This document shows positions 8,110 through 27,626 of a DNA stretch of 64,000 bases, one piece after another. Numbering within the stretch: the first letter of the stretch is position 1; the number at the start of each line of letters is the position of its first letter. The DNA comes from Alphaproteobacteria bacterium (GTDB lineage: Bacteria > Pseudomonadota > Alphaproteobacteria > RF32 > CAG-239), in NCBI GenBank assembly GCA_048463395.1, contig DBFWPL010000019.1, forward strand, positions 2,668 to 66,667, read 5' to 3'. Made by a program: the position numbers and the translations under genes. The notes below the pieces were generated by a model. The model saw only the letters and a program-made list of their open reading frames with translations. It had not been told where the DNA came from and ran no database searches.

Positions 8110-9242
8110 TAGCCTGCTCCCATGGAACTGGTAATTTGATCTTGCATTTCAAACACGCCCATAACCGCCCAGGCGATAACGCCGCCCACGGAAAGCAAGG
8201 CGGCCATGTTTAAAATAGCCGCTTTTTGCTCAATCATGTAAACGGATTCGTCCAGCCAGTCGTTGGCAAGTTTTTCCAAAGCTTCTTCAAAGTTGTCCAA
8301 TTCCGAATAAATCTTCAGGTCGCTGATAATCTCGGCATCCGGAAAGTCCAATCCCGTTTTTGCCAAAGCCTGCCCCAGGTTATCACCGTTGTTGATGTGC
8401 ACAAGAGTCTCATCAATGCGTTCTTTCAAATAACTGTTTGAATCTCTTCTTAATGCTCTTAACGAGGTTGAAACCGGCGTACCGCTCTTGACCAAGGCGG
8501 AAAGAGCCAATAGCCAGCTGATGCCGGAAAAGACTTTGTACAAAGACCAAGGCGGAATGCTGTCAAAAAAAGCTCTGATTCTTCCCGTCCAAATACCGAT
8601 GGTTCCGTAAATAATAATCATGACAATCGGGAGAGCCGAGAATGCAACAAGCCAGTATTGGGCAATCCAGTCTGATATATCCACCAATGTCTTGGCGGTG
8701 CCTCTCCACCGAACGGTCGGAGCGGCGTCAATCATCGGCGGCACCATGTAAACGCCGATACCGTAAATAATCAAAATCGCCATCATAAACAAAAAGGTCG
8801 GGTAGGTAATGGCTCCGATAATCGGGCGAACCATTTTGGTAGAACCTTCCGTAACACGGATAAGGTTTAACAACGCTCCTTCCAAATCGGAAACGTCGCC
8901 CACGGAAAGCATAAGGCGTTCACGGTTTGGAGCCCAGCCTTTCAGTGCGTCGGAAAACGGGAGACCATTTTGCAAAGCTTTACCCCAGCTGGCAATGGCG
9001 ATTGCCAACGGTTCGCTCGGATTCTTTCCGCCGTTGCTCACACTGTCGTGTAAAAGGTCTAACGCGTCCATTAATGAAAAGCGGTTACGCATCAAAGACG
9101 CCAGCTTACGATAAATTTTCAATCTGGTGTCGTTTGAAAACTGACAAATCATCTTGGCATAATAAACTTCAATCGTATTCAGCTGCCGCATAGCCTTTGC
9201 AAGGGACGCTGTTTGACGCTTTTTTTTCTCTTCTTCAGCCAT
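8109..9242 (-). CDS. GspF/PilC-family inner-membrane platform protein (R64 PilR / BfpE / TcpE-like)
   Basis: 377 aa. Cytoplasmic N-domain followed by three TM helices and a repeated cytoplasmic domain, the typical T2SS_F topology. Confidence 0.75.
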   Translation of the reverse strand: MAEEEKKKRQTASLAKAMRQLNTIEVYYAKMICQFSNDTRLKIYRKLASLMRNRFSLMDALDLLHDSVSNGGKNPSEPLAIAIASWGKALQNGLPFSDALKGWAPNRERLMLSVGDVSDLEGALLNLIRVTEGSTKMVRPIIGAITYPTFLFMMAILIIYGIGVYMVPPMIDAAPTVRWRGTAKTLVDISDWIAQYWLVAFSALPIVMIIIYGTIGIWTGRIRAFFDSIPPWSLYKVFSGISWLLALSALVKSGTPVSTSLRALRRDSNSYLKERIDETLVHINNGDNLGQALAKTGLDFPDAEIISDLKIYSELDNFEEALEKLANDWLDESVYMIEQKAAILNMAALLSVGGVIAWAVMGVFEMQDQITSSMGAG

Positions 9243-9267
9243 TTTTGATTTTGCTCCTTAAAATTAA

Positions 9268-10917: not shown

Positions 10918-10925
10918 TTGCCGAA

Positions 10926-12332: not shown

Positions 12333-13599
12333 AGATCGCTCCCTCGTAATCCCACATATCGTTACTGACGTTATAATTAATCATATTAATGGTAAGTCCT
12401 GAAAATTTTGTTAATAAATCCATCCATACCAGAGGATTATGGCTGGATGAAAACTTGAATTGTACAGAACTATATACATTATTCTGCGGAGAAACGTATG
12501 AAAAACTGCTCAAAACCACTTTTTGCCCGATGGCTTGAAACAAATCATTAAGTAAAACTTTTAAATCCTCGTCGCTTTTCATCGGCGGAGAAGAAATGAT
12601 TTCCACTTTTCCCAACGGAACAGAAGCAATAATGTTGTCTCCATTGTCAGAAACCGAACGACTGGAAAAAATCAGTCCGGAATCATCTAAGGCCTTGTTA
12701 ATCCAAGAAACACGGCCGATTTCCCTTTTCCAAGATGTTGTGATGCCTTCCGGCGTGCAAGTCAGATTGTTAATAGTCCATCCCGGCGGCAGAATTTTTT
12801 TCAAAGCCTCAATGCCGTAATAGCACCATTTTATAACATCGTTCGGGCGGTTAACCTTCTCCCAAGGTTTAATTTCCGGCGGCTCTTCAACCTGCTTGAC
12901 AACTTTCGGCGGAATTGGAGCTATAATCGGCCTTTTCGGCGGAGCCAGAAAAATTCCGTTGATAATACTGGATAACAGCCACAAGCCGATAATTGCCGAA
13001 ATAACAACAACGATTAAGAGCTTAGTGCCTCGTAACGCCTTAATCTTTTGCAGCTTGGCTCTCAGGCCTTTATTTAATAATTGTGTAAGATCAGGATATT
13101 CCGTTTCTTCAATGCCCCATTCAGGCGGAGCAATTTTTCTGCCCCAGTCCGGAACGGCCAACATCGACATGAACTGTTCTTTGGCTTCCTGTTCGGACAA
13201 AAACAGCATATCGCCGTCAGACAAAATGATGTCGTTACGAATACAGGTATACCACCATCCGTTGTCGACTTTGAATACGGCAACAAAAGAAGAACGGTCT
13301 GAAAGGGCTGTGGCTAATGTTACGGCAGCAACATTGTCGCCCTTTTTATAACCTTCACCGGAAACACAGATACCGAATTGAGGGGCTTTCCCCGGTTTGA
13401 TACAGAATAAATCGGCACCTTCCAGAATACCTTCGGAAGCTTCTTCCACCTCGTTAAACGGATCATCCTTGTTTTGCAGAGGCTGCCAGAACAAGCTGGT
13501 TGCGTAAGATACGCCGGCAACGGTAATATTCGTTCCCCAGGAACGCTGCTTACCTCCGTTTTCGTAATCTTCATCTAATAACTTTGCTTCTTCCAGCAC
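12322..13599 (-). CDS. PilO-like (IncI thin-pilus type) bitopic pilus assembly protein
   Basis: 425 aa. Cytoplasmic N-domain, a central TM (LLIVVVISAIIGLWLLSSIINGIFL) and a periplasmic C-domain. Size and position match R64 PilO and BfpC. Confidence 0.4.
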   Translation of the reverse strand: MLEEAKLLDEDYENGGKQRSWGTNITVAGVSYATSLFWQPLQNKDDPFNEVEEASEGILEGADLFCIKPGKAPQFGICVSGEGYKKGDNVAAVTLATALSDRSSFVAVFKVDNGWWYTCIRNDIILSDGDMLFLSEQEAKEQFMSMLAVPDWGRKIAPPEWGIEETEYPDLTQLLNKGLRAKLQKIKALRGTKLLIVVVISAIIGLWLLSSIINGIFLAPPKRPIIAPIPPKVVKQVEEPPEIKPWEKVNRPNDVIKWCYYGIEALKKILPPGWTINNLTCTPEGITTSWKREIGRVSWINKALDDSGLIFSSRSVSDNGDNIIASVPLGKVEIISSPPMKSDEDLKVLLNDLFQAIGQKVVLSSFSYVSPQNNVYSSVQFKFSSSHNPLVWMDLLTKFSGLTINMINYNVSNDMWDYEGAIYVL

Positions 13600-13614
13600 C
13601 GTTTTATCCTTTTC

Positions 13615-15231
13615 TTAAAACTGATCTTTCATTCTGGATTCCGGTGTTAAAGGTGAATCCAAAACAACCGGAGTTAAGATAATGACCAGAATATTTCTTG
13701 TTTTGTCGGCAGTTGCCGTACCGCCGAACAAAGAGTTTTCTGCTGACCCGACCCCTGTTTTTTCAGCTTTGTTCTCAACACGTTCATAACCTGTCAAGAC
13801 CAAAGATTCTCCGGATTTTAACGCAACTTCCTGCGTAAAGCCGCGAGATTCGATAACCGGGTTTTGGATGTATTGTCCGTCTGACCCTTCACCGCTGCCG
13901 CCTAAGTCAACTCTTTCAAGTTGAAGCAGGTCAGACAAAGTCAGGTTGAACATTAACAACATGCGTCCGTGTTCCAAAATACGCGGCAGAATATCCATTG
14001 TGAAACCGGTTTCGATTTCTTCGGTCTCTGTTGAGATATCATAGTAGCTGGCATCACCGCCGCTGTTGGTCTTGGTAATTTCAGAAATATAGTTTTGTTT
14101 TCTGACAACCTGAATAGGAGCCGGTTTGTTATTCAAAGTAGTAACCGTACCGCTGGTAATCAAATTGGTTGTTCCTTGTGTGGACAAGGCCTGAATGGCT
14201 CCGTCAACAGTCCAGTCTCCGGACAAGACCTTCATGCTTAAATTGTTGGTTACATCAGTCCCCAATCCCGGAACACTGGCAATTGTACCGGAAAGTTTAT
14301 TTTTATCATCAAAGATAGCGGAAAGATTTAAACCATATTGGTCGCTGTCTTCAATATTGACCTGCAGAACTTTGACGCTGATGGCAACTTGTCTGGACAA
14401 ACGGGCATTTTGTTCATTAATGAACTTTGCCACTTTTCTGATGTCATTCGGTGTCGCTGTCAATGAAATTGTTCCGTTTGCCGGATCCAAAGTCAGTTTG
14501 GCATCCTTGGAAATCATTGATGTAATGGATTTTTCAATATTTCCCCATAACTCAATGGAAATGGAGCTGGACAAACCGATAGAGGAGGTGCCCTCGCTTC
14601 CTGATGACGAGCCGCCGACATTGACGTTCAATGTTGGCTTTGTCGGCAGAGAGTAAAGGACAAACGTTCTGGTAATATACTTATAAAAATATATTTCTTT
14701 CTTTTCATAAGACCACCAAATGCCGAAACGGGATGAAATTTCATCCAACAAACCGCTTAAAGGCCCTTGATAAGAAACCAGCATTTTGCTTGGTTCCGTC
14801 CAGTCTGAATTAATCGTTTCCGGATTAGGCTTGTTAGACGCCGCAGTTTTGAAGGCATCTTCTTCAAGCTGAGGAGAAAATCTGATTTTCAAAGAAGTGA
14901 TTTTATTAATCATATCGCCGATTTCATACAAAGTAATCGGACGGTTGCTGATTAAGGTAATGCCGTCTTTCCCTTCAAGGTAAGAAGGCAAAGGCTCTCC
15001 TTCATACTCAATCTCGCTGGTATCGCCCAGCCAGATATCATTTTTTACCCGCACAACATCGTCTGAGGAGGGTTTTGTCGGGATTTTTGCGGCTTCTTTG
15101 AGCTGTGTTGCAGCTTCTACTTCCCGCTCAATTGTTGCGTCCAAACTGGTAGACAGGGAACAAGAGGCGATTAACGCTGCAAGTGCTGCTCCTAAACTAC
15201 ATTTTGCCCAATTATTCATATGCATTCTCAT
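13615..15231 (-). CDS. lipoprotein secretin (R64 PilN / BfpB / TcpC class)
   Basis: 538 aa. Lipobox IASC in the signal peptide. C-terminal secretin signature ...SLFGGTATADKTRNILVIILTPVVLDS. Confidence 0.75.
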   Translation of the reverse strand: MRMHMNNWAKCSLGAALAALIASCSLSTSLDATIEREVEAATQLKEAAKIPTKPSSDDVVRVKNDIWLGDTSEIEYEGEPLPSYLEGKDGITLISNRPITLYEIGDMINKITSLKIRFSPQLEEDAFKTAASNKPNPETINSDWTEPSKMLVSYQGPLSGLLDEISSRFGIWWSYEKKEIYFYKYITRTFVLYSLPTKPTLNVNVGGSSSGSEGTSSIGLSSSISIELWGNIEKSITSMISKDAKLTLDPANGTISLTATPNDIRKVAKFINEQNARLSRQVAISVKVLQVNIEDSDQYGLNLSAIFDDKNKLSGTIASVPGLGTDVTNNLSMKVLSGDWTVDGAIQALSTQGTTNLITSGTVTTLNNKPAPIQVVRKQNYISEITKTNSGGDASYYDISTETEEIETGFTMDILPRILEHGRMLLMFNLTLSDLLQLERVDLGGSGEGSDGQYIQNPVIESRGFTQEVALKSGESLVLTGYERVENKAEKTGVGSAENSLFGGTATADKTRNILVIILTPVVLDSPLTPESRMKDQF

Positions 15232-15862
15232 CCTCCATTGTCTCTACGACCAAGACGCGGTTTCCTTTATAAAATGTTGCGATCGGAGCCGGACGTGCTC
15301 TGGCAAAAGCTCTGATAAGAGCAGAACTTACATCCGCAAAACGTCCTCTGAACATTGCTCCGGCGGTTAGAGTATAATTTCTGTTACTTTTCCAAATCAG
15401 TCTCCAGCCGGCTCTTTCGCTCCATTCCGTCAGCAATGTTTTAAGAGACTGTCCTTCTTCTGCCAGCCAGTCTTCAACAGGATCTTCGGCGGAATAGCTG
15501 TCGCCGCTGTTACCGTTTCCGTTGTTTTCGGTAATTTTGATTTCCTCTTCGTAATCGACCACCTCGTCTTCAATGGCCGGAGGGATGGAAGACGACATAT
15601 TGCTTCCGGCTCCGGATTGAACAATATTTTGATCGCGGGGAGATCTTTCTCCGTATTCTTTATAATCGGCGGCAACTCTTGTGTAATTTACAAAATCACG
15701 ACCGGATGATGTATCCGCATCAAAACTTCCGCTTTGACAACTCGCGTCGGGACAAGGAACATTATCCGGCAGCTCATCCATTGGCTCAGCCATGGAGCCG
15801 GCACAGGCGGCAGTCAAAAACAATCCGAAAAAACAAGAGACTAGTCTTATTTTTGAGTCCAT
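15212..15862 (-). CDS. lipoprotein, pilus-associated (PilL/TcpQ-like position)
   Basis: The internal Met gives MDSKIRLVSCFFGLFLTAACAGS (lipobox LTAAC). The ORF track extends to 15907. Overlaps the secretin gene start. Confidence 0.45.
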   Translation of the reverse strand: MDSKIRLVSCFFGLFLTAACAGSMAEPMDELPDNVPCPDASCQSGSFDADTSSGRDFVNYTRVAADYKEYGERSPRDQNIVQSGAGSNMSSSIPPAIEDEVVDYEEEIKITENNGNGNSGDSYSAEDPVEDWLAEEGQSLKTLLTEWSERAGWRLIWKSNRNYTLTAGAMFRGRFADVSSALIRAFARARPAPIATFYKGNRVLVVETMEDENAYE

Positions 15863-15957
15863 ATTTATAATCCCTAAGCTGTATTTTGTCATATTTTTAC
15901 CTATCATACATATTGAAAATTAAATAATCAAGCACGACACTTCAGTTATTACCAAGG

Positions 15958-17709
15958 TTACCATTGCTGGTAATATTGTTGTATGCTGCGGTTATTTTCT
16001 TCTGTGCTCCTGTTAAAGTTGTTATTGATTCTTACGGTTCGTATAATAAATGAATTAGGTTCCCGGGTTGTGAATACAGTATTGATTTTGCTGTATTCTA
16101 CACCCTTATTGGTTAATATATTATGTAAAAGATTCAGTCTTTTCTGCTGTAAAGCGAAAGAGCTTGTTCCGTCGATGCGAATTTCCAGTCCGATAGATGA
16201 ATCTTCCAGGGTTTTGTTTGCAAAGGCCTGTATCCATTTCAGTGTTTGTCCCGATATTTCGGCTCGGTTAGGCTGGAATGAGAGCCTGATTTCCGTTGGC
16301 AGAATTTTTTGGGATGAACTGAATTTTTTTATTCTTCCCGATATCCGGTTGAAGAAATTGTCTTCTGCTTCGTCATCTTGGATATTGGCATTCTCCTTTG
16401 TGCTCTGCTCGGTTTTTTGAGCATCGTTTCCTGAGAAGATGGAAGTAATGCTTTTCAAGAAGCTGCTGGTTTTGGGAATAATGGTTGCAGGAGGTTCTTT
16501 TCCTTCAACTTTGATTTGATTTTGAGGAGCTTCTTTACTTTCGATAACTTCTTTTTCAAGATTGGCTTTTTCCTCCGAATTTGGAGAAACCAGTTGAGGA
16601 GTAAGATTTTCGTCATTGAGAATGTCTTCGGGGATAGGAATGAGGATATTTTTAACCATTCCTGAATCTGCCAGCAAGATTTCGTCTTCTTGCGATGAAA
16701 ATGGTGCGGAAGTTCTCAGAGCCTGCTGAATATTTTCTTTTTCTCCGTTTTTGTAGTACTCTTGGTCTAAAACACTGTTGTTTTTAGGATGCTTTGTTCC
16801 TTTCGCAACAACCCATGGCTCATTCGAGTTATTTTTTTCTTCCATAGTTGTCCAATTCGGGGTTTGTTGAGAATTGTCCCCCTCTGTTTTGACGGAGGAA
16901 GCAATCATGCTTTTAATCGGAATGTTTTTTTCGGCCAAAGCAAGCTGGTTCTGATCCGGAGAATTGATGATTTCTATTTTTTTGTTTGCTTTTGCTGTCG
17001 TTCCGTCCCTTTCTATCGGAATAAGCAAATCCGAAGAGCTTTCTTCTTTTGGTTGGGATGAATGTATCTCTTTGACCGGAATTAAGTTATTTGGCGTTCG
17101 GGCTTCTGCCACAAGAAACGCCTCGCCGTCTCCGGCTTGTTCCGGAAGTAAATCTGCCGGAGATTTATCGGTGATCTCCGGTTTTTCAGTCTCAAAAGGA
17201 AGAATGTTCAGCTCAGTCTCGTCTTTGGCAATGATAATTTCCGATTCATCAACGGGAGGGGTATTGTTGATGATTTTATCAAAGTTTTCGACGATTTTCT
17301 GAGGCTTCTGCTTTAGCCGGGGATCTATTTCCAGAGGGATAAACGAAATTTCCCTCAGATTTTTATCATTTTGAACTTGAGGGTTCTCGTCGGCGTCAGC
17401 TGAAGTCGATGAACCGGTTGTTTCTTCCCCGCTTCCGAAAGTTAAAGGAATGTCTTCTTGCAAAGAAAACCGAGAGGTTGAGTTTTTTTTCGGAAGGGTT
17501 AATGCAACTTTCTTCACCGGAATGACTTTTGACGAAGCGGTGCTTTTTAGCTCGTTTTTCAAGAAAAGGGTAATGTTTTTGTTTGAAATTTTAAGTTCGT
17601 CTGTACGAATGGAGCGGTTACGAAGATATACTCCGTTTACCGTAAAAATTGTAAACAGAGAAAAAACAAAGCTGCAAACAAACGTTTTTAAACTTGTCTT
17701 TTTCATCAA
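15958..17709 (-). CDS. large low-complexity membrane-anchored protein, first gene of pilus operon
   Basis: 583 aa. N-terminal hydrophobic segment. A long S/E/N/K/P-rich disordered region. A roughly 120-aa C-terminal folded domain (IRLSFQPNRAEISGQTLKWIQAFANK...). Confidence 0.4.
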   Translation of the reverse strand: MMKKTSLKTFVCSFVFSLFTIFTVNGVYLRNRSIRTDELKISNKNITLFLKNELKSTASSKVIPVKKVALTLPKKNSTSRFSLQEDIPLTFGSGEETTGSSTSADADENPQVQNDKNLREISFIPLEIDPRLKQKPQKIVENFDKIINNTPPVDESEIIIAKDETELNILPFETEKPEITDKSPADLLPEQAGDGEAFLVAEARTPNNLIPVKEIHSSQPKEESSSDLLIPIERDGTTAKANKKIEIINSPDQNQLALAEKNIPIKSMIASSVKTEGDNSQQTPNWTTMEEKNNSNEPWVVAKGTKHPKNNSVLDQEYYKNGEKENIQQALRTSAPFSSQEDEILLADSGMVKNILIPIPEDILNDENLTPQLVSPNSEEKANLEKEVIESKEAPQNQIKVEGKEPPATIIPKTSSFLKSITSIFSGNDAQKTEQSTKENANIQDDEAEDNFFNRISGRIKKFSSSQKILPTEIRLSFQPNRAEISGQTLKWIQAFANKTLEDSSIGLEIRIDGTSSFALQQKRLNLLHNILTNKGVEYSKINTVFTTREPNSFIIRTVRINNNFNRSTEENNRSIQQYYQQW

Positions 17710-18029
17710 AAATCAAAACCCCTCTAAACCCTTGATAATTCAATATGCGACTCTTGGCAAGAAGATATAAAATTATGCACAAAATTTGTGGATTCTTTTT
17801 TAGATATGATTCTGTTTTATTAGAGAAATATTTACTATTGGAGGTGTAAGAATAAGGGTGTTTATACTTCTTTAATAACTGTGAATTTTTTGTTACAGGG
17901 AAAAATATTATTGTAAATCAGATTGTTATCTGTTTTTTAGGAGAGAGAATATTGCTGGTAAAAAAGTTAAAAATTAGCTATCCTAAAAGAGTATAAGAAG
18001 TTTTGCTAAATTAATTAAGGAGAAAGATT

Positions 18030-18374
18030 ATGCAATTTTTGAAGAAAAATATTTGGACACTGAGCTGCATGGTGCTCATTTTGGCGATGGCTTTTGTAGG
18101 CGATGCATCCGCTGCCGCAGACGGTAACACTTTGATGGATACTGCCAAAACCAAAGCTAAAAGCGTGTTCACATCCGTTAAAACCATCATCTTCATTGTC
18201 GGTGGTTTCGGTTTGGTAGGTTTGGCTTGGGCCGCTATTTTCGGTAAAGTAAACTGGAAATGGTTTGCATCTTTGGCCGTTGGTCTGGCTATTTTGGCTG
18301 CTGCCGGTTCAATCGTTGAATACGCAACAGGTTCAAGAGATGCAGGTCTTGAAACTACATTCGGTGATATCTAG
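18030..18374 (+). CDS. VirB2/TrbC-family T4SS pilin, paralog a
   Basis: 114 aa. Signal peptide (AMAFVGDASA) followed by a two-TM hairpin IIFIVGGFGLVGLAWAAIFGKVNWKWFASLAVGLAILAAAGS. Strong RBS aggagaaag. Confidence 0.7.
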   Translation: MQFLKKNIWTLSCMVLILAMAFVGDASAAADGNTLMDTAKTKAKSVFTSVKTIIFIVGGFGLVGLAWAAIFGKVNWKWFASLAVGLAILAAAGSIVEYATGSRDAGLETTFGDI

Positions 18375-18417
18375 TCTTATGCCGAATAGGAAAGCATAAT
18401 TATAAAGGGAGGAAAAA

Positions 18418-18891
18418 ATGGAAAATTTAAATAAAAATAGACCACAATTCCTCCCTTTTGTTTGTCTGCTGAAAAAAGCAATAAATGTTATAGATGAAAA
18501 GGACTGTAGGATGTTGTGCGTAAAATTAAAGAACTTCCTGATGATGGCTGTTGTGATGTTCGTGGTTTCTTCAGTTTTATTTGCAACAGATTCATATGCG
18601 GATAGCGGGGATAACGGATTGTTTTCCGATTTAATCGCCAAGGGAGGAAGTATCTTCTCCGGTATGCGTGAAATTATCTATGCTGTTGCCGGCTTCGGTA
18701 TCTCAGCGGTTGCAATCGGTGGTTTCTTTGGAAACTTAAACTGGAAATGGCTTGTGGCTATAGCCCTTGGTTTGTTTGTCATTGCCACGACCGGCGTGAT
18801 TATTAACTACATGGTTGGTGAACAAACCATTACGGATTCAATGATTACGGATACGTTAATCAGCGGTGACTCAACCGGCATAAAAAAATAA
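18418..18891 (+). CDS. VirB2/TrbC-family T4SS pilin, paralog b
   Basis: Same core hairpin (IIYAVAGFGISAVAIGGFFGNLNWKWLVAIALGLFVIATTG). The true start may be the internal Met preceding LKNFLMMAVVMFVVSSVLFA. Confidence 0.6.
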   Translation: MENLNKNRPQFLPFVCLLKKAINVIDEKDCRMLCVKLKNFLMMAVVMFVVSSVLFATDSYADSGDNGLFSDLIAKGGSIFSGMREIIYAVAGFGISAVAIGGFFGNLNWKWLVAIALGLFVIATTGVIINYMVGEQTITDSMITDTLISGDSTGIKK

Positions 18892-18931
18892 TAAACGACT
18901 TTAAATGTTTAGGACTGATAGGGAGGGTGCT

Positions 18932-21484
18932 ATGTTTAACCTTAAGGAAATGAAAAAAATAGTAGCAGCGGCTGTTGTGTTCTCGGCAATGGCTGTATAT
19001 GCCCACCCGTCATTTGCATTGGAAGTAAATTGTGATGGAAAAACCGGACAAGAGCTGAAAAACTGCGAGGAGCTGAAAGCTTTGGCAGAAAAAGGAAATA
19101 AAAATGCCGAGGAAAAGGCAAAAAAAGCAAATGACAAAGCTGTGGAAAAAAATTCTAAGGCCATTACCGAAAAATGGGATTATTTAAATAACTACGATGG
19201 TGGTAAAAAAGATGAGTCCGGCTTCACTGAAGCAGCTAAAAAAGGAGGTACTCTTGGTGAGGATGATAGTGCTGACCGTATAGCAGCGGCTAATAAGAAA
19301 AAGCAGGAAGCCAGTGCAGCCTTGTCAAAGGCCTTGTCTGAGGGGGACACTAAGGGGGCTGAAAGTGCACAACAGGCAATGATTGCTGCGAATAATGATA
19401 TTGCTAATGCCCAAGCTGATGCCAAAAGATATGAAGAGGCTCAAAAAGCTCAAGAAAAGGCAGATAAGGAAAAAGCTAAAGCAGAGGAAGCGGCACGTAA
19501 GGCTCAAGAGAGTGCAGATAAGAAAGTAATTAAAGCTGCGGAAAAAAATGAAAAAAGTGCTAATAAAGACAAAGAAAAAGCTGATAAAGAAGTAAAAAAA
19601 TTACAAGAAAAATGTGAGAAAGATCCGGAAAAATGTGATACTGCCGCATTGCAGGCTGCTTTGGCTAAGCAACAAGCAGCCACTGCAGCAGCTGAAGCGG
19701 CAACCAAACAACGTGAAGATATTGACGGCACAACGGCAGCCCGAGAGCAGGCCGAGAAAGATAAACAAGCTGCCCAAGATGCTGCGGATGGAGCCGGGGC
19801 GAAGGATGGGGATATCTTGGCTGATGCCAATGCTGCCGATAAAGGAGGTATTGCAGAGGCAAATGCAGCTCCGAAAAGATGTGAAGGGGCTACCGGTATT
19901 TTTGAGATTATCGCTTGTAAGGCCATCACGACTTTAGCGGATTTGCGAACAATTCTGTATATCTTTGCCGGTTTCGGTTTGATAGCTTTCGCATGGTCGG
20001 CAATTTTCAATAAAATCAGTTGGAAGCACTTCGCCCAGATTTGTATATCTTTATTCTTACTGTCAATGATGGGAAGTTTTATCGGATATTTTGGGTATAA
20101 TGGAGACTATGAAAGCCTGAAATTTGGGGAATATTTAAAAGATGGTCATGAAAAACCGGATAATACTGTTCATTGTACCCAAAAAGATGATGGTTGTGAG
20201 CTTCCTGAACTTGTGGTAACCGGTAAAGCATCAAAAAAATGGAGTTTGAGTGATTTGAAAAGTTCAATCCAATCCGGTATCAGTGCGGTACAGAAAGCTC
20301 ATAGTGCTTACCAGACGACCAAAGCGACTGTTGAAAACGTAGTTAATAATGCCAAAACGATTGGTAATGCAATTAAAAACGGTGAAGGCGGTTTGGATGG
20401 TATCCTGAATACAATGACAACCGTAGCCGGAGCAACCGGAAATATTATGAACTCCGGACAATTGTTGGCAAATAATTTGGCAGCAAATGTTGGCGGAATA
20501 TCGGAAGATATTAAGTTGGCAGGTATGAGTGCGGAAGATCGCGAGAGACGTGCAAAAACTCAACAAAGATATGCAGAGCTTAAGGATCAGTGCACAGCCG
20601 GAAAATGTAATGCAGATCAAAAGGCTGAATATGAAAGATTAAAAGACGCTGTTGAAGGCGATGAAAATGGTAAGAAAGGTAGCATCAGCGGAAAAACAGG
20701 TATTCAAGCCTGGCTTGATAACGACGGTAAAGGTGGTGGTGCAACCATTATGTCCGGTATTAATAAAGTCGGTAATATCACTAATAACGTCAGCAATGCG
20801 GTAACCAACACGGCAAATGCAGCCCAGAATGGTATGTCTATGGGTAACGACATTGGCGGCGGAGCTTTAGGTAATATCTTGGGTGCTGCCATGGGTGCCG
20901 CAACAGGTGTTGGTGAAGGTATCGGTATGATGGGTGACGAAAACTTCAACTTCAAGAGTGAAGCTACAAAACGCGAAGAAAAGGCCGCCGCCGAAGAGGC
21001 TGCTTATAAAGCCAGTGATCAGTATGTTGTGGCTACAAGCAAAGATGGAAAATCTGAAGTTCGTGGCGATGGCAGTACCAGAACCACCTATGAAGATGGT
21101 ACTGTGGTCGTAACCTCTAAAGATGGTACCAAAACGGCAACCACTAAAAATGGTTCAGTAGTTGTTCAAAATACAGATGGTACTAAAGTTGTAACTAACT
21201 CTAACGGTACGGTAACAACCTATAATAAAGACGGTAAGGCGATTAAGGTTAATAACAGCAAGACCAAAGTAACACAGGGTGGCACAGCATCCATTAACGA
21301 AATGGTTAAAAATACTCAAGAAAAAGAGGCCTGTGAGAAAAAGGGCGGTACATATGATGTCAAAACGAAAAAATGTACAACTCCTGAAGACGAGTGTAAA
21401 GCTAAGGGTGGCACATATGATAGTAAGACCAAAAAATGTAACATGCCGGAAGCAAAGCCGGAAGCAAAACCGGACGCCAAATAA
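18932..21484 (+). CDS. large secreted protein with embedded VirB2-like hairpin (VirB2 paralog c fusion)
   Basis: About 850 aa from the Met after the RBS gggaggg. It has a signal peptide, an A/K/E-rich coiled coil, the VirB2-homologous segment ILYIFAGFGLIAFAWSAIFNKISWKHFAQICISLFLLSMMGS, a G/N/T-rich region, Thr-rich beta repeats and a C-terminal duplicated CxKKGGTYDxKTKKC motif. Confidence 0.55.
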   Translation: MFNLKEMKKIVAAAVVFSAMAVYAHPSFALEVNCDGKTGQELKNCEELKALAEKGNKNAEEKAKKANDKAVEKNSKAITEKWDYLNNYDGGKKDESGFTEAAKKGGTLGEDDSADRIAAANKKKQEASAALSKALSEGDTKGAESAQQAMIAANNDIANAQADAKRYEEAQKAQEKADKEKAKAEEAARKAQESADKKVIKAAEKNEKSANKDKEKADKEVKKLQEKCEKDPEKCDTAALQAALAKQQAATAAAEAATKQREDIDGTTAAREQAEKDKQAAQDAADGAGAKDGDILADANAADKGGIAEANAAPKRCEGATGIFEIIACKAITTLADLRTILYIFAGFGLIAFAWSAIFNKISWKHFAQICISLFLLSMMGSFIGYFGYNGDYESLKFGEYLKDGHEKPDNTVHCTQKDDGCELPELVVTGKASKKWSLSDLKSSIQSGISAVQKAHSAYQTTKATVENVVNNAKTIGNAIKNGEGGLDGILNTMTTVAGATGNIMNSGQLLANNLAANVGGISEDIKLAGMSAEDRERRAKTQQRYAELKDQCTAGKCNADQKAEYERLKDAVEGDENGKKGSISGKTGIQAWLDNDGKGGGATIMSGINKVGNITNNVSNAVTNTANAAQNGMSMGNDIGGGALGNILGAAMGAATGVGEGIGMMGDENFNFKSEATKREEKAAAEEAAYKASDQYVVATSKDGKSEVRGDGSTRTTYEDGTVVVTSKDGTKTATTKNGSVVVQNTDGTKVVTNSNGTVTTYNKDGKAIKVNNSKTKVTQGGTASINEMVKNTQEKEACEKKGGTYDVKTKKCTTPEDECKAKGGTYDSKTKKCNMPEAKPEAKPDAK

Positions 21485-21525
21485 AGTAATGGTTGGCTAA
21501 TCCTCTTTAACCACTCATTAACCAA

Positions 21526-21566
21526 AACAGAGTATACTTTACAATAAGGTATACTCTGTTTTTTTG
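21526..21566 (+). terminator. rho-independent terminator after the VirB2 block
   Basis: cagagtatac-(tttacaataag)-gtatactctg followed by ttttttt. Confidence 0.7.
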
Positions 21567-21653
21567 TATGCGGAAAGTGAATAAAATATGCTTTCCCTTG
21601 CATATAAAAAACAACTGCCATAGAATCAAAATGAACATAAAGGGATTGGGCGT

Positions 21654-21944
21654 ATGAGAGAAATGATATTAAAAGCCGTGGCTAATCCTCCGAAGATATT
21701 ATGGGGGCCGTTTCTGCCTGTGCTTATGAATCTCGGTGTTCAGTTTCCGATTATGTTTATGTTTATTGGTGTTATGGATGTCAACCCGATTGTGTTTTTG
21801 ATAAGTATTGTCTTGGGGCATGTGGCCGCGGTGGCTTTAGGCGTTCGCGATCCTCACATCTCCACCATGATTCAGGCATACGGACAAACGCACAAAACAA
21901 CTACTAACCTCTATAAAGAAAAGGGGAATAAATTTGCACCCTGA
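21654..21944 (+). CDS. virB3: VirB3-like small membrane protein
   Basis: 96 aa with two hydrophobic segments. Its end overlaps the start of the VirB4 gene by 11 nt, the canonical B3-B4 arrangement. Confidence 0.65.
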   Translation: MREMILKAVANPPKILWGPFLPVLMNLGVQFPIMFMFIGVMDVNPIVFLISIVLGHVAAVALGVRDPHISTMIQAYGQTHKTTTNLYKEKGNKFAP

Positions 21945-24366
21945 TTTTGACTTTTTCAGTACGTTTGTACAAGGTTTGAGTAATATTGAAGTTGCTGTTG
22001 CCGTCATTGGTTTCGTTTCTGCGGCAGCTTTTGCCGGCTTGTGGGCAACCAAACTCGGAAGCTTGATTCTGCCCCAACCGCATGAGTCTCGAGTTGCAGA
22101 CTTTTTGCCGTTTAACAAACTGATGTCTGACGGAATTACAATTCGGTGCTATAACAACTCTTTTGCCCGTGTTTTCAAAGTGGAAGGGGTGGACTTATCC
22201 TTTGTAACCGATGAAAAGAACCTGTCTATGATGGAAGCTCGCAAGTCGTGGATTGACGGGATGTCTGACTTGCAGGTTGTCTGTCGGGTGATTACTCTGA
22301 GAGAGCGTATCCCTTTGGAAGAGGCAGAGGGGGATTTCAACAATCAATTGCTGGAGCAAATTTCCGAAACTTGGAAAAATAATCTGGACAGGGTTTACAG
22401 CAATCAACACTACATTATTCTCAGTGTGGCCGACCGTCCGGAAGCTTTGAAAGATTTGAACTATGCTTCTCAGGCTCTGTTGGCGACTTTGAATGATTAC
22501 GGCGTGAAACCGATGTATGAGACGGAAGACAGCCCGGCCTCCGACAGTCCGCTCAGTGTTTTCAGTAAAATCTGCAGTCCGATTTCCAAACCGGCTCCCA
22601 AAGTCCGCGGGGCTGAAGGCTTCCACATGAATCAACTGTTGACTTCGGATCATATCCATTTTACCGGCGAGAAGGGAATTATCCGCTTTTTCTCCGGCGA
22701 ACGGGAAAAATTGGCGATTGCCATGGGTATTCGTTCTTCTGGAGATTATATGGACGAGGGGATGATTGCCTCGTTGCTGTCCATTGACTGTGAATTAACG
22801 CTTTTACACAATGTTAAGCCGATTTTCAAGCCTTATGCCCGAGGTTTGCTGATGCAGCAACAGAGAATGGCGGCAATGACCAGCTTTTCTCCGGATGTAA
22901 TTAACCAATACAGCGAAGCTCTGCAGGCAATTGAAGACAGTGATGCTGATTATCAGGCTTTGACTGAATATTCCATGACCATAATTATTCGCGGCGACAG
23001 TACGGAAGAAATTGAATTTGGCGAAGGCGAGGTTCAAAGAATTTGCCGCTTGTTCAGTGTAACGCCGGTGCGTGAAGGCTGGGTGGCTCAGGCGGCGTTC
23101 TTTAACCAGTTTCCGACATATGAAACTTATCCGAGAACATATCGCTACTTGTCCAGAGTAGTCGCAATGGCAATTTCCTTTGACAAACCGTCGGAAGGTT
23201 TTTCCAAATCAGACTGGGGACCGGGAGCAATTTCCGTGTTCCGTACGACATCCGGTTCTGCTTATCGTTTCCAATTCCACGTGTCTTCCGAAGATGCTGC
23301 AGTCGCCCACTGTTGTATTATCGGTCCGACCGGACAAGGTAAAACAACATTGCTGACATTCTTGGCCGGACAGGCAATGCGGCACCCTGATTTGAAAGTG
23401 TTCTTCTTCGACCGCCACCGTGGTGCGGAAATCTTTACTCGTGCGGTCGGCGGGGCTTATGTCGGTTTTGACGGTGATGAGAAAAACGTCTCCCTAAACC
23501 CGTTTGACTGTGAAACAAACGCCAATAACAAAGCGTTTCTCCGCCGTTGGCTGAAAGCGATTACCATGGTCGACGATGCGTTGTCCGAAAAAGAAATCGG
23601 TCGTGCGGTAACAACGGCGTTTGACTACCTGAAACCGGAAGAACGTATTTTGAGAAATTTGTATAAGAGTTGTTTCTCCCCGACCGGAAATATGCGTCGT
23701 GAATTGTTCCGCTGGGTTAATCCGGATCAGTACGGTAATATTTTTAATGCCGAGAACGATAGCTTGGATTTGCGTTCAAAACGTTTTATGGCCTTTGACT
23801 TCACCCATATTTTTGAAGATGAAACCCTTGCTCCGGCGGTAATCAGCTACATCATGCACAGAATCATGTCTGAAACCGGCGACAGCGGTGTTCCGTCTCT
23901 GATTATGATCGATGAGACCGCACCGATGTTAAAGCACCCGATGTTTAGAGATTACTTTATCATCGGTTTACAAGAAGGTCGTAAAAAACGCCAAGCATAT
24001 CTTTGTGCGTTCCAACAGCCGAATATTATTGATAAACTGGGCGTCGGCGAGGTTATCCGCGGTCAGTGTCAGACGGTTTTGTTCTTTAGAAACCCGCAGG
24101 CCATGCCGGAAGATTACGCTAACTGGAACCTGACACAAAGGGAAATTGATTTTATTTTCGGTAAAAGTTACCGTGATTTTCCTTACGCTATTCTGCTTTC
24201 GCGTCCGGCAACCGGAGAGTCGGTGATTTTGGATGTGGATTTAAGCGGTTTGGGCCCATATTTGAAATTATACAATTCCGGCCGTAAGAATGTGTTGTTG
24301 GTGGAAGAGCTGATTAAGGAATACGGAGAGAACAACTTTGTTACAAAATATTTAAATATTGCGTAA
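21934..24366 (+). CDS. virB4: VirB4/TrbE-family T4SS ATPase
   Basis: 810 aa. Walker A GPTGQGKTT, Walker B LIMIDETAPML, and the overall size and architecture of VirB4/CagE. Confidence 0.9.
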   Translation: MHPDFDFFSTFVQGLSNIEVAVAVIGFVSAAAFAGLWATKLGSLILPQPHESRVADFLPFNKLMSDGITIRCYNNSFARVFKVEGVDLSFVTDEKNLSMMEARKSWIDGMSDLQVVCRVITLRERIPLEEAEGDFNNQLLEQISETWKNNLDRVYSNQHYIILSVADRPEALKDLNYASQALLATLNDYGVKPMYETEDSPASDSPLSVFSKICSPISKPAPKVRGAEGFHMNQLLTSDHIHFTGEKGIIRFFSGEREKLAIAMGIRSSGDYMDEGMIASLLSIDCELTLLHNVKPIFKPYARGLLMQQQRMAAMTSFSPDVINQYSEALQAIEDSDADYQALTEYSMTIIIRGDSTEEIEFGEGEVQRICRLFSVTPVREGWVAQAAFFNQFPTYETYPRTYRYLSRVVAMAISFDKPSEGFSKSDWGPGAISVFRTTSGSAYRFQFHVSSEDAAVAHCCIIGPTGQGKTTLLTFLAGQAMRHPDLKVFFFDRHRGAEIFTRAVGGAYVGFDGDEKNVSLNPFDCETNANNKAFLRRWLKAITMVDDALSEKEIGRAVTTAFDYLKPEERILRNLYKSCFSPTGNMRRELFRWVNPDQYGNIFNAENDSLDLRSKRFMAFDFTHIFEDETLAPAVISYIMHRIMSETGDSGVPSLIMIDETAPMLKHPMFRDYFIIGLQEGRKKRQAYLCAFQQPNIIDKLGVGEVIRGQCQTVLFFRNPQAMPEDYANWNLTQREIDFIFGKSYRDFPYAILLSRPATGESVILDVDLSGLGPYLKLYNSGRKNVLLVEELIKEYGENNFVTKYLNIA

Positions 24367-24443
24367 TAAGGATAATTGCCATTTATAAATGAGTGATTTT
24401 TTGCTATCATAGAAGTAACGGCAAAAGTCAGGTGGAGGTCAAA

Positions 24444-26822
24444 ATGGAAAAGAATAAAAGTAAGAATCTGCTGGCCCTCTTAGGGGGTGTTTTGCTGATG
24501 TCGTTTCCTTTGAAGGCACAGGCACAATGGCCGACGGTTGATATTGCCGCTATTAAACAGGCGATTACCTCTAATATTGAATTGGTAAAACAATCCAAAA
24601 TCGTAACAGATGCCACGTCTCTGGCCGGAAAGATCAATTCCGGTATTGGCGATGCTAAAGCCAGTATGTCCAAATATGCCGGAGATAATTTGGAAAAAGC
24701 CAAAGAAAAAGCCGAAAAAGTCAAAAAAGAAAAAGAACGCCTTGATAAAATGAAAGAAAAATATGACAAGGCCAAAGAATATGCTGAAAAGAAAAAGAAA
24801 GAATTGGAAGAAGCCAAAGCATGGGCTGAAGAAAAGAAAAACCAGGCGACGGCAATGAAAGACGAGGCCATGAGTTATAAAGATATGGCCAAGGATGGTT
24901 TGGATACGGCTAAAAGCATGGCATCCGATGCTAAAAATATGGCAGCCGATGCTGCAAGTATGGCCGGAGATTTAAAAAGTGCTGCCGGAGCCCAATTGGG
25001 AACCGTCAAAAATCAGGCTGGTATGGATGTTGCCGAACCTGTCATAGATAATGATATTTATGACCAGCTTCAAATTACTTCGGACGACAAAGTTTATGGC
25101 GATGATGATTATGGCATGGCAAACCTTGATCCTGAGCTTCAGGGACAAATTAACCAACAAATTGTCGATAAGTTTATGGAAGATATTAACGGTGCCGAAA
25201 GCGAACGAGATGCAGCATTGGCAAAACTTGAAGAGCTTCGTGCCAATGGCGGAGATACTGCCGCCGCAGAACAAGCTTTGGCTGAAGCAGAAAACCGCTT
25301 AAGAGACATGAAGCAAGGATATCAACAGGTTTTGGATGACAAAGGCATAGAACTCCCGAACGGAGAGAGATTCTTCACCAAAGAAGGCGGTATGGCTAAC
25401 CAGAATGCATATGAGGAAATGGCTCGTGCCGCTGCCGCCAATAACAGTGGTGTGGATATGGAGGCCATGATACAGGATGAATACGAAAAAGCTGCCCGAG
25501 CAGCAGGAAGTACGGGAGTTTCCGCTGATTTCAAAGTAGATAAAAAGGCTGCGGTTGAAAAAGTCGGAGATGTTGCTGCGGTTAAAGCCGTGGCTGAGGT
25601 AAACGATTCCGCCAAGGCAGCCGTTGCCGAAAGCTCGAAAGCTCTGAATAAAAGTGCGATAAGCTTAAATAAAGCAGCTGTGGCATCTCCGGCATTGTCA
25701 AAAGCAGCAGTTTCTGCACCGATGACTTTGGAGAAAAAGACAGCCCCGAGTGTTAACAAAGCGGGACAGCCGAAGGTTTCGGGAAGAAAAGCCTTTCAAA
25801 AACGTTCGGATATCGGATTGGAAAGCAAAAATAAATTTGTCAGCCGCTCTTTTTCCGAAACGCTCAGTTTTGCTGATGTAGAAGTCGGAATGACAGATAA
25901 TACGTTTGACGGGGAGTTTGCGGCATCTGAAAGTTTTTTTAATTATTGCGGTTTCAGTGCCAAGGATGCGAATTCGGACAATATAACAGATTGTCAGAAA
26001 AAGCTCCTTGAAGCCGCAGAAAGTGAAAATCAACAGGATGCTGCAGATGCTCAGGCAGTGATTGAGTCAGTCAGTTCGGAAACTGTCGTCGGCATGGCGG
26101 CCAAAGGGATGAAAAATCGTAAGGACGTTGCCGGAAATGATGAAAAACAGGATAAATTGAATGAAACCGCTGGAAATTCTGACAACAACAGAGATGATAT
26201 ATCGGCATTGGTGATGAATGACAAGGAACTTCAGGTTCTGGGGGACGGATTATTAGATGTTTATGCTTCAAAGCTGTTGTTGGACAGCTTTTCAAGTTTA
26301 CCATTTGTAAAAGTAATTGATACGGAAGAAGTGATTCCTGATCCGGAACATGATATGGTTGATGCAACTTTTGACGGTAAGTTTGCCGGAGCTCCGGCAA
26401 TGTATGATCTTTGCGAATTTAGTGCCAAGGATGTTACGGAAGACAGCAGCGAGGTAACCAGTTGTATGGAGAAACTTGTTCAGGATAAAAATAATCCGGA
26501 TATGAAGATTGCGACCGAGGGTTTGGAAAATTACAATAAAGTCAGAGGGGGAACCAGTATAGGAATGGTTCCGATTGCATTAGATGCAATTAAAGAAGTG
26601 GCGTATAATGATGAAACAATTGAAAAGATTGAAGAAGAAGCCGGTGATGCAAACAATATGACTGCGGATGTTGGAGCATTGACTCTTTCTAATAAAGAAA
26701 TTTTAGTAAAATTTAACAAAATGTTGGACATTTTTTCGGCCCAGTTACTTCTTGATTCTATTTCAAATATGGAAAGTGTCAATGCCGAAGCTCTTCCTTC
26801 AGAAGCGGGAGAACAGGGATGA
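24444..26822 (+). CDS. extended TrbJ/VirB5-like secreted protein
   Basis: Met after RBS ggaggt. Signal peptide, then QWPTVDIAAIKQAITSNIELVKQ, which matches the P-V-x-D-x-A-N-x-x-Q N-terminus of TrbJ/VirB5. Then a coiled coil and a duplicated C-terminal module (TFDGxFA...CxFSAKD...C..KL). Confidence 0.5.
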   Translation: MEKNKSKNLLALLGGVLLMSFPLKAQAQWPTVDIAAIKQAITSNIELVKQSKIVTDATSLAGKINSGIGDAKASMSKYAGDNLEKAKEKAEKVKKEKERLDKMKEKYDKAKEYAEKKKKELEEAKAWAEEKKNQATAMKDEAMSYKDMAKDGLDTAKSMASDAKNMAADAASMAGDLKSAAGAQLGTVKNQAGMDVAEPVIDNDIYDQLQITSDDKVYGDDDYGMANLDPELQGQINQQIVDKFMEDINGAESERDAALAKLEELRANGGDTAAAEQALAEAENRLRDMKQGYQQVLDDKGIELPNGERFFTKEGGMANQNAYEEMARAAAANNSGVDMEAMIQDEYEKAARAAGSTGVSADFKVDKKAAVEKVGDVAAVKAVAEVNDSAKAAVAESSKALNKSAISLNKAAVASPALSKAAVSAPMTLEKKTAPSVNKAGQPKVSGRKAFQKRSDIGLESKNKFVSRSFSETLSFADVEVGMTDNTFDGEFAASESFFNYCGFSAKDANSDNITDCQKKLLEAAESENQQDAADAQAVIESVSSETVVGMAAKGMKNRKDVAGNDEKQDKLNETAGNSDNNRDDISALVMNDKELQVLGDGLLDVYASKLLLDSFSSLPFVKVIDTEEVIPDPEHDMVDATFDGKFAGAPAMYDLCEFSAKDVTEDSSEVTSCMEKLVQDKNNPDMKIATEGLENYNKVRGGTSIGMVPIALDAIKEVAYNDETIEKIEEEAGDANNMTADVGALTLSNKEILVKFNKMLDIFSAQLLLDSISNMESVNAEALPSEAGEQG

Positions 26823-27616
26823 TGAAAAAAAATGTATTAATTCTCTTTTTCCTGTCCGTAATCAGCTTTTTCGAAACCAAAAACGCTGTCGCTGATATTG
26901 AGGCAGCTCAGGCTGTTTATGGTAATGTTGAAACAGGTGTAAAAGAAGCCACGGCAATTAAGGATGAATTGGGAAAAATACAGGAAGATATGCGTTCGGC
27001 AATGGAGGGGATTGCCGGACCGATAAAACAAGCCGTGGCAACAGGTATGGATGCGGCCGCTCAAGCCAAATCTGCGGCGGCTCAGGCTCAGTCCATGACT
27101 TCCGATCCGACCGGAACGGCAATGTCTGCTGTAGACGGAGGTTTGTCTTTGCCGTCTCTTAATCTTAAGCAGCCGAGCTTTTTAAAAGATGTGGATGATC
27201 AGGAAGAAACCTCCAAAGCAATTGTTGCCAATTATATGCTTCAAAGAGGAGCTTCCGTGGACGGAAAGCTGGATACCAATCAGGCCATGCAACTCCAGAA
27301 TGAAAAACTGATGGTTATTCAGCGAGATAATTTTGCCAAATTATATTCTTCGGCATTTACCATCCGAACCAACATGGCAAAGGAACGTCTGGCGGAAAAG
27401 AAAGATGTTCTCGGAGAATGTTCCAAAGAAAGCGATGGCAATTCCAATACCCGGTGTGTAAAATTGGCAATCAGAGAAAAGGCCGATACGACGGCTCGTC
27501 GCATGGGTCGTATTCTGGGGTTGGAATTGGCAATTTTCGAGTTGGAAATTACTCAGCAGGCCGGAGTTTATCAAAAACAGGCTGATGAAGATGATGGCGA
27601 TGAGAAAGAAGAATAA
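26819..27616 (+). CDS. secreted coiled-coil protein (possible second VirB5-like)
   Basis: 265 aa. Signal peptide. ATGA overlap with the upstream gene. Alpha-helical and Ala-rich. Confidence 0.4.
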   Translation: MMKKNVLILFFLSVISFFETKNAVADIEAAQAVYGNVETGVKEATAIKDELGKIQEDMRSAMEGIAGPIKQAVATGMDAAAQAKSAAAQAQSMTSDPTGTAMSAVDGGLSLPSLNLKQPSFLKDVDDQEETSKAIVANYMLQRGASVDGKLDTNQAMQLQNEKLMVIQRDNFAKLYSSAFTIRTNMAKERLAEKKDVLGECSKESDGNSNTRCVKLAIREKADTTARRMGRILGLELAIFELEITQQAGVYQKQADEDDGDEKEE

Positions 27617-27626
27617 GGGGGCTGGC

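Follow-up and report, generated by a model that had tools for sequence, protein, structure and literature searches.

A 64,000-nt stretch of DNA from an uncultured alphaproteobacterium of the gut (contig DBFWPL010000019.1; the whole stretch is referred to below as the window) harbours three consecutive plus-strand open reading frames (ORFs) between positions 18030 and 21484, which encode proteins of 114, 157 and 859 amino acids (aa) designated here p1, p2 and p3. This block consists of three anciently diverged VirB2/TrbC paralogues that head an expanded VirB-type (P-type) type IV secretion system (T4SS) operon. A preliminary description of the window had recognised three VirB2-like proteins, two of normal pilin size and the third embedded in a far larger secreted protein. 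This picture is borne out by our analysis: pairwise BLASTP, profile–profile comparisons and TrbC matches agree on the kinship of the three proteins, and the ORFs of p1 and p2 have the sizes of ordinary pilins. The figure of 859 aa for the third protein holds for the longest ORF (18905–21484), but the protein made by the cell is probably somewhat shorter. Good Shine–Dalgarno sequences precede each of the three genes; in p3 a strong one, GGGAGGG, lies 5–6 nt upstream of the second ATG at 18932 and not of the first ATG at 18905, and on public contigs p1, p2 and p3 have been called independently as proteins of 114, 157 and 850 aa. For both reasons the probable start of p3 is 18932, which yields a product of 850 aa.

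The homology between the three proteins resides in a hairpin of two hydrophobic helices. p1 matches the TrbC/VirB2 family of Pfam (PF04956) with 40.5 bits (E 3.2e-10), above the curated gathering cutoff of 27.9 bits, and all 12 of the 12 small pilins orthologous to p1 match TrbC (best E 1.2e-12). p2 aligns to profile positions 9–96 with 23.1 bits (E 8.8e-5), below the cutoff, while full-length p3 has no TrbC match in Pfam. Judged from sequence, the link of p3 to VirB2 is transitive and family-level. BLASTP aligns p1 with p2 (E 3e-21), p1 with residues 304–395 of p3 (E 1e-16, 34% identity) and p2 with residues 328–395 of p3 (E 2e-11), and a hidden Markov model (HMM) built from large-protein hairpins alone retrieves p1 at 2e-17 and p2 at 7e-12. 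The embedded segment aligns with VirB2 profiles: hhalign joins the profile of the large-protein hairpins to that of the small pilins over 74 columns (99.0% probability, E 2.6e-18), and 18 of 21 orthologous embedded segments match the Pfam TrbC/VirB2 profile at E<=0.1 (best 8.5e-6), in every case over the right stretch of the profile and with scores that all stay below the 27.9-bit cutoff. When distant, very large orthologues are searched at full length, a TrbC signal of 16.8–22.9 bits, again below 27.9, appears in the middle of the protein.

A three-way alignment reproduces the common motif described earlier in the form I(I/L)(F/Y)..(G/A)GFG(L/I)...A....F(G/N)(K/N).(N/S)WK. The preliminary description had proposed a TM topology prediction as a check; hydropathy analysis gives the same arrangement for p1, p2 and p3, namely a signal-like N-terminal segment followed by two transmembrane (TM) helices, and the loops between the helices are short and basic (GKVNWKW, GNLNWKW and NKISWKH, respectively). 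The predicted signal or leader of p1 ends near ...GDASA/AADG, and this protein is probably the major pilin; p2 has a long leader, with a predicted mature part from about ...DSYA/DSGDNG. The trio adjoins virB3/virB4 at the head of the virB-type operon, an arrangement kept in at least 35 related loci. When p1, the hairpin profile and the profile of the full-length protein were searched against the sequences of PDB chains, nothing significant was returned, the best matches being coiled-coil noise or having E ~0.9.

Table 1. Coordinates of the pilin block and of the genes that follow it. Positions are those of the 64,000-nt window; residues of p3 follow the 859-aa numbering, here and in the text, unless stated otherwise.
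Feature	Position	Strand	Remarks
p1, canonical VirB2/TrbC pro-pilin, 114 aa	18030..18374	+	Pfam PF04956; AAGGAG Shine–Dalgarno upstream
p2, second VirB2 paralogue, 157 aa from ATG 18418	18418..18891	+	GGGAGG Shine–Dalgarno; BLASTP to p1
p3, large VirB2-family protein, longest ORF 859 aa, probably 850 aa	18905..21484	+	same operon position in ~38 genomes
p3 signal peptide (predicted), residues 10–38	18932..19018	+	MFNLKEMKK-IVAAAVVFSAMAVYA-HPSFA/LE; hydropathy 19–37; conserved in homologue consensus
p3 N-terminal ectodomain, residues 39–320	19019..19864	+	A/K/E-rich long helices; Cys pairs 43/54, 237/244
p3 embedded VirB2 hairpin, residues 321–402	19865..20110	+	Cys326/Cys338; TM1 344–369, loop NKISWKH, TM2 375–397
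p3 C-proximal ectodomain, residues 403–700	20111..21004	+	conserved KWSLxDLK; G/N/A/T-rich predicted helices; Cys pairs 424/431, 563/568
p3 glycine-zipper run, residues 643–672	20831..20920	+	five overlapping GxxxGxxxG, within C-proximal ectodomain
p3 Thr/Val/Lys-rich beta-repeat region, residues 701–790	21005..21274	+	eight 9-residue (D/N)G-x repeats at 714–780
p3, two C-terminal disulfide-loop repeats (predicted), residues 810–824 and 831–845	21332..21439	+	CxKKGGTYDxKTKKC; PEAK-type tail after
Intrinsic terminator, long stem and T-run	21524..21570 (stem 21524–21562)	+	18 pairs by terminator scan; 13 covarying-alignment pairs
96-aa two-TM protein, VirB3 position	21654..21944	+	position and hydropathy
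VirB4 ATPase, 810 aa	21934..24366	+	TIGR00929 E 3.6e-107; PF03135

Architecture and conservation of the large protein

p3 differs from an ordinary VirB2 by ~280 residues that separate the hairpin from the signal peptide and by a further ~460 that follow the hairpin (Table 1). The hairpin is its best conserved stretch in the homologue alignment; C326/C338, K370 and K374 are invariant among p3 orthologues and the GFG motif is present. Invariant residues do not break off at the end of the hairpin but continue into the domain on its C-terminal side (G408, Y410, L411, K445, W446 and S447), and the glycine zipper likewise contains invariant positions (G643, G647, G656, G660 and G664). Of the 15 cysteines of p3, 14 can be grouped as seven close pairs, none of them located in a TM helix, and the remaining one, C380, lies within TM2. 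From these cysteine pairs, the signal peptide and the two-helix topology we infer that both large domains are located in the periplasm or beyond.

Structure predictions were made as AlphaFold2 monomers. The A/K/E-rich N-terminal region, earlier described as a coiled coil, is predicted to be helical, with helices at 110–310 (850-aa numbering), a block-mean predicted local distance difference test (pLDDT) score of ~64–86 and a confidence that is moderate to good only from about residue 120 onwards; BLAST detects this ectodomain in the close clade and not beyond it. The beta-repeat region is predicted as strands forming a beta-meander (block-mean pLDDT ~76–88), its best Foldseek match in the PDB is the single-layer beta-sheet of the CPAP G-box/TCP10 fold (E 2.7e-3), and a weak match to Tcp10_C is found in Pfam. 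The beta-repeat character that had been ascribed to both a Thr-rich and a G/N-rich region thus applies to the Thr-rich repeats at 714–780, whereas the G/N-rich part (~440–700) is predicted to be helical at low confidence. The duplicated C-terminal CxKKGGTYDxKTKKC motif is present as noted before, with the copies CEKKGGTYDVKTKKC at 810–824 and CKAKGGTYDSKTKKC at 831–845, and is poorly conserved across homologues. Residues 403–700 belong to no Pfam family, and Pfam and NCBIfam searches with full-length p3 and its three parts gave no significant family besides the weak Tcp10_C-like repeats. BLAST comparison of the p3 ectodomains with all other proteins of the window revealed no domain in common, and Pfam searches of six very large orthologues detected the central TrbC signal only and no adhesin, lectin or Ig-type domains.

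The large architecture is widespread. More than 335 homologues of p3 were found, of which the best 120 are all 680–1139 aa long, and the locus scan, which used one genome per species, yielded 50 loci. With one exception these are labelled as uncultured Alphaproteobacteria or unclassified proteobacteria, and those with a named source derive from gut, faecal or rumen material of humans, ruminants, chickens and other animals. The exception (L038, JAISVX010000001.1) is labelled Lactobacillaceae, carries an alphaproteobacterial T4SS together with the trio and is probably a mis-binned contig. The homologue search that had been suggested for the large architecture thereby also recovers the genetic context: the trio occurs in the same order in ~38 loci, with a small (~112 aa), a medium (~137–261 aa) and a large protein (417–2058 aa), in most of them followed by VirB3 and VirB4 and preceded by a type IVb pilus cluster on the opposite strand.

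Sequence divergence is distributed unevenly over the trio. The identity of p1 is ~58–100% between loci that keep the trio and that of the p3 hairpin mostly 44–68%, reaching 98% in the most closely related loci; across loci the p3 ectodomains quickly escape detection and vary in length from 50 to 850 aa on the N-terminal and from 200 to 1300 aa on the C-terminal side. The ratio of non-synonymous to synonymous substitution rates (dN/dS) was computed against the two closest orthologues, with each of five p3 regions estimable in at least one comparison, and is below 0.2 wherever it can be estimated. All regions of p3 are under purifying selection. With a dN/dS of 0.03 the constraint on the hairpin is as strong as that on p1 (0–0.02) and VirB4 (0.01), and the domains that flank it, with 0.13 for the N-terminal domain, 0.07–0.11 for residues 403–700 and 0.13–0.17 for the beta repeats, are fast-evolving and replaced between lineages.

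In a neighbour-joining tree of 129 hairpins three clades correspond to the three operon positions. All 47 hairpins of large proteins fall into one clade, and they do so together with the small third-position pilins (123–126 aa) of L049 and L050, two loci of more distant relationship in which the protein in the VirB5 position is small as well (234–358 aa). Since the clade of the large proteins also includes unextended pilins, the third paralogue was probably once an ordinary pilin that later gained domains on both of its sides. The junction on the N-terminal side can be proposed by alignment with a homologue that has no N-terminal extension (P0134), in which the AFA/A motif for cleavage of the signal peptide falls exactly on ANA/AP (residues 320–324) of p3; the sequence preceding the p3 hairpin is, by this alignment, the putative insertion point of the N-terminal domain.

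An exhaustive HMMER search with the 88-residue hairpin against 1.84 billion representative proteins, clustered at 50% identity, gave 404 clusters at E<=1e-3, of which 210 reach E<=1e-10. Among the best 150 clusters ~130 are at least 300 aa long, with lengths of up to 2138 aa, and one class of homologues of ~360 aa has a C-terminal extension only. Natural single-chain concatemers joined by short G/T/S-rich linkers were encountered as well, with three hairpins in 308 aa (P0209) and two in 216 aa (P0213), a hint that the hairpin can be extended covalently at its termini without a change of topology. A protein of 5189 aa with 15 matched stretches (P0201), a candidate for a giant multi-hairpin protein, proved to be a repeat-driven false positive devoid of a hairpin. 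In a distant clade (L030–L047) the second-position pilin is also extended (186–261 aa), and extension is therefore not confined to the third paralogue; some of these medium pilins bear duplicated Cys-rich N-terminal motifs, KAECE.(N/S)CKG(S/T)CVWLSPSNEYRCE.

Possible roles of p3 in the pilus and the envelope

We give an even chance to the proposal that p3 is a minor pilin which displays variable fibrous domains at the tip or the surface of the pilus. The argument draws on the strong constraint on the hairpin and its possession of the GFG and loop-lysine motifs common to p1 and p2, on the rapid turnover and predicted fibrous character of the ectodomains, and on the grouping of p3 with the pilins upstream of a terminator, from which co-transcription is inferred. 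A plain membrane anchor would be expected neither to be the most conserved segment of the protein nor to retain the GFG and WK motifs. According to this proposal p3 would be exported by Sec and, as any VirB2 does, reside in the inner membrane, with the lysine-bearing loop NKISWKH in the cytoplasm and both large domains in the periplasm, where the cysteine pairs could be oxidised. It would then be taken up by the VirB4/VirB6 pilin-extraction machinery that also serves p1 and polymerised via its hairpin.

The VirB2 subunit of the T-pilus has the shape of a U whose two ends point outward, and the outer diameter of the pilus is 76 A compared to 82 A for the cavity of the outer-membrane complex (10.1101/2022.09.25.509369). 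Solved structures of conjugative pili show each terminus of VirB2 at the outer surface of the filament, so that a polymerised p3 would have its two domains pointing outward, and the tight fit of the VirB2 tube in the outer-membrane channel would most likely confine p3 to the first, distal layers as a minor subunit whose elongated domains lead the way out. The result would be a fibrous crown made of a long coiled coil, a single-layer beta-sheet and a glycine-zipper segment that contacts the target surface, while p1 builds the shaft; a pilin extended in this way may make an adhesin an integral part of the pilus. A more specific version, which we put forward tentatively and think may well not hold, is that five copies of p3 polymerise on the VirB6 platform and exit first as a founding distal layer with a covalently attached crown for adhesion and membrane insertion.

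Several observations weigh against a displayed minor pilin. The isolated hairpin segment of p3 scores 10.3 bits against Pfam TrbC, which is non-significant (E 0.86). The ~770 extra residues per subunit may prevent p3 from passing the outer-membrane complex, even as a tip subunit. AlphaFold2 gives whole p3 a mean pLDDT of 55.9, with only the N-terminal helices and the beta repeats confident, and residues 403–700 on their own a mean of 45.0, which is unusable; as the hairpin and residues 440–700 are predicted with low confidence, the fibrous description covers only part of the protein. Moreover, an 809-aa protein in the VirB5 position (24393–26822) is a possible occupant of the tip, and neither a VirD4 coupling protein nor a relaxase was found among the scanned window ORFs of at least 150 aa.

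The strong conservation of the hairpin would equally be shown by a docking module, and p3 might never leave the envelope if its hairpin serves only to dock the protein at the VirB6/VirB3/VirB4 pilin platform while the long domains stay periplasmic. It would then be part of an enlarged machine or else the last, chain-terminating subunit that fixes the base of the pilus to the envelope. Every periplasmic or outer part of this system is indeed enlarged (a VirB9 of 567 aa, a VirB10 of 1475 aa, extra secreted proteins of 1286 and 1680 aa, two VirB8), and the bulk of the ectodomains has to be set against a channel barely wider than the pilus. However, machine parts are usually conserved, whereas the ectodomains of p3 are its fastest-evolving and most length-variable parts, as is the case for exposed surfaces; p3 is grouped with the pilins upstream of the terminator and not with the machine genes; and the relatives L049 and L050 make do with a small, unextended third pilin. 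We regard the two forms of this explanation, taken jointly, as doubtful, although the evidence at hand would fit a role of p3 at the tip as well as one as an anchor. It is rather improbable that p3 is a polyprotein-like pro-pilin from which periplasmic cleavage releases a pilin of normal size and domains that act separately. Trimming at both ends is known for pilins of the VirB2 family, with long leaders and, in TrbC of RP4, C-terminal trimming, and the cleavage motif AFA/A of P0134 coincides with ANA/AP in p3; yet ANA/A is not preceded by a hydrophobic core, so its use by signal peptidase I would be unexpected, the APKRC motif is conserved in the close clade only, the run of invariant residues from the hairpin into the C-terminal domain is unbroken, and profile scans of the window found no TraF-like or other dedicated peptidase beside the pilin genes.

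Glycine zippers are typical of membrane-inserting toxins, and the five overlapping GxxxGxxxG motifs with their invariant glycines, together with the hint at antibacterial use from a 1260-aa M23/VgrG3-like protein in the region, raise the idea of a contact-dependent factor: p3 would leave on the pilus and its residues 643–672 would enter the target membrane, making it a translocon or pore-forming toxin rather than an adhesin. The chance of this is slim, as the zipper segment of the window p3 is too little hydrophobic to score as a TM helix, distant large homologues have no detectable equivalent region and no immunity-like gene was identified; the idea overlaps with the displayed minor pilin rather than opposing it. 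That p3 is no real protein at all, but two or three genes joined by an assembly or annotation error or a decaying pseudogene, is barely credible and effectively refuted. The sole weak point in this regard is that translation probably does not begin at the first in-frame ATG, at 18905. The ORF has no interruption, gene calls on three independent contigs give the identical product of 850 aa, 47 large orthologues occur in independent assemblies, gene order is conserved, and each of the five regions has a dN/dS far below 1 (0.03–0.17). The fusion of two genes considered in the preliminary description can accordingly be set aside, and the large ORF is a single gene.

VirB2 is usually regarded as a minimal two-helix building block. 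The existence of a conserved family of large members implies that the pilin module tolerates very large terminal fusions with its sequence constraint kept, and that extended VirB2 proteins are systematically missed by annotation, every named member looked up being listed as a 'hypothetical protein'. The family points to an apparatus for host or neighbour contact that has gone unstudied in common uncultured gut bacteria of humans and animals. If the domains are displayed on the pilus, they would offer a natural system for the study of T4SS pilus initiation, passage through the outer-membrane complex and target specificity. If, in addition, p3 does form the founding layer, the pilin itself would encode target recognition, and the swapping of ectodomains would diversify it. 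This would be a second and previously unrecognised route to a functional T4SS pilus tip besides VirB5, and one widespread in gut Alphaproteobacteria, considering that ~130 of the best 150 clusters reach 300 aa or more.

The terminator, the secretion genes and their neighbourhood

The pilin block ends at an intrinsic terminator of its own, as proposed at the outset. The 116-nt stretch that holds the stem has a folding energy of -35.2 kcal/mol (z -6.2 versus shuffles), and most related loci have a stem-loop and T-run just 3' of the large gene, often of different sequence. An alignment of 14 loci predicts 13 pairs with compensatory double changes in 8 of them; 97.3% of cells are paired versus 37–66% in slid-partner controls, and the covariation score is 0.59 versus 0.07–0.27. 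Covariation of this kind indicates that the terminator is real and structurally conserved. Rfam yielded nothing over 17000–22500 but a chance miRNA-like match on the terminator hairpin. A short conserved sequence stands directly 5' of the stem at 21505–21523 and at the equivalent positions of L001–L047, reading TAACCACTCATTAACCA in the close clade and TTATTCATAAA in the distant one. With p1–p3 all upstream of a conserved terminator, pilin transcripts could exceed those of the machine genes.

Downstream of the terminator the 96-aa protein in the VirB3 position has no Pfam match and is 56–99% identical between loci. VirB4 is 75–99% identical, and on its 3' side come two paralogues of VirB8, a VirB9 of 567 aa that has a SPOR domain at its C-terminus, VirB10 and VirB11. 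The interval between VirB4 and VirB8 (24393–34510) encodes four secreted proteins of 809, 265, 628 and 1680 aa without family assignment. The VirB5 profile PF07996 does not match the 809-aa protein, and a protein in the VirB5 position of Microvirga matches it weakly (E 0.17). The outer machine parts encoded between 34526 and 46327 are giant; they include the two VirB8, VirB9, a 1286-aa protein and the 1475-aa VirB10, of which the last two contain many beta-flower (PF21785/DUF3659) repeats.

No polytopic VirB6 is encoded in the main virB operon. Candidates occur on the minus strand within 55874–62985, one of 455 aa (61618–62985) with a weak TrbL/VirB6 match (E 0.0038) and one of 653 aa (59660–61621) without a family, and beside them lies the gene for the 1260-aa protein. 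Its M23 peptidase and VgrG3-like C-terminal domains would be compatible with a VirB1 substitute or an antibacterial effector. The G+C content falls to 0.34 between 54000 and 56000, where a protein of 324 aa is encoded (54234–55208) that has two domains of the HTH_3 (XRE) type and, located between T4SS-associated clusters, could be a regulator of the region. The VirB4 identity of 75–99% is maintained over ~35 species-level genomes, the flanks are conserved and neither VirD4 nor a relaxase was detected among the scanned window ORFs of at least 150 aa, and for these reasons the system looks more like a vertically inherited chromosomal one than part of a plasmid or an integrative and conjugative element.

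On the other side of the block, and divergent from it, a complete type IVb pilus cluster occupies the minus strand from 5940 to 17709. It comprises three PilS/bundlin-type pilins, T2SSF, the T2SSE ATPase, PilO, a secretin, TcpQ and a 583-aa secreted protein. The last three, nearest to the virB2 block, adjoin the trio in most related loci, and this association suggests that the type IVb pilus and the T4SS cooperate as surface organelles.

Comparison with known systems

The members of the trio resemble the VirB2/TrbC pilins of Agrobacterium tumefaciens (VirB2) and RP4 (TrbC) in their leader, two hydrophobic helices, short basic loop and adjacency to virB3–virB4. Classical VirB2/TrbC proteins are, however, single-domain pro-pilins of ~100–150 aa, a size range reflected in pilin surveys that limit VirB2 candidates to 50–150 aa, whereas p3 has 850–859 aa and thus ~770 extra residues over both termini. 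The closest plasmid-borne VirB4 (39.6% identity) is encoded by pMVF16-3 of Microvirga sp. VF16, where the genes are in a like order, VirB2-VirB3-VirB4 ... VirB8-VirB9-VirB10-VirB11; in contrast to the window this is a conventional conjugation locus with a single 117-aa TrbC/VirB2 and an adjoining MobA/MobL relaxase, and with neither the trio nor an extended pilin.

Tandem arrays of VirB2 genes have been described in Bartonella Trw (the TrwL copies), among the virB2 paralogues of Anaplasma and Ehrlichia and in Patescibacteria, and they have been interpreted as variable surface or adhesion structures (PMC12857230; PMC12102498). Like the trio they place divergent VirB2 genes side by side, but their products are small pilins of similar size, whereas the trio is made up of fixed, non-interchangeable orthologous groups, one of them with large ectodomains. 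Trw also operates without VirD4, a trait in common with the scanned ORFs of the window.

Enlargement of core T4SS subunits by hydrophilic domains has precedents. CagY of Helicobacter is an enlarged VirB10. Extended VirB6 proteins carry large hydrophilic domains to which no function has been assigned (PMC12857230). The system described here is alike in that core subunits are enlarged in this way, its VirB9, VirB10 and VirB5-position proteins as well as its pilin. The open-access literature covered (reviews, surveys and searches on T4SS, RF32, VirB2 fusions and minor pilins) describes extended VirB6 and does not describe extended VirB2.

In its proposed location and role p3 resembles VirB5 of P-type T4SSs, which is found at the distal end of the pilus and makes contact with the target. 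VirB5 differs in having no sequence similarity to p3, no membrane hairpin and no homology to VirB2, and a separate gene occupies the VirB5 position here. Another parallel is provided by the minor pilins CofB and TcpB of type IVb pili, in which a pilin module that fits into the filament is combined with large extra domains and which are located at the tip and start assembly. Their pilin fold is unrelated to that of VirB2 and they are assembled by a different machine; the likeness to p3 would be one of functional design, by analogy.

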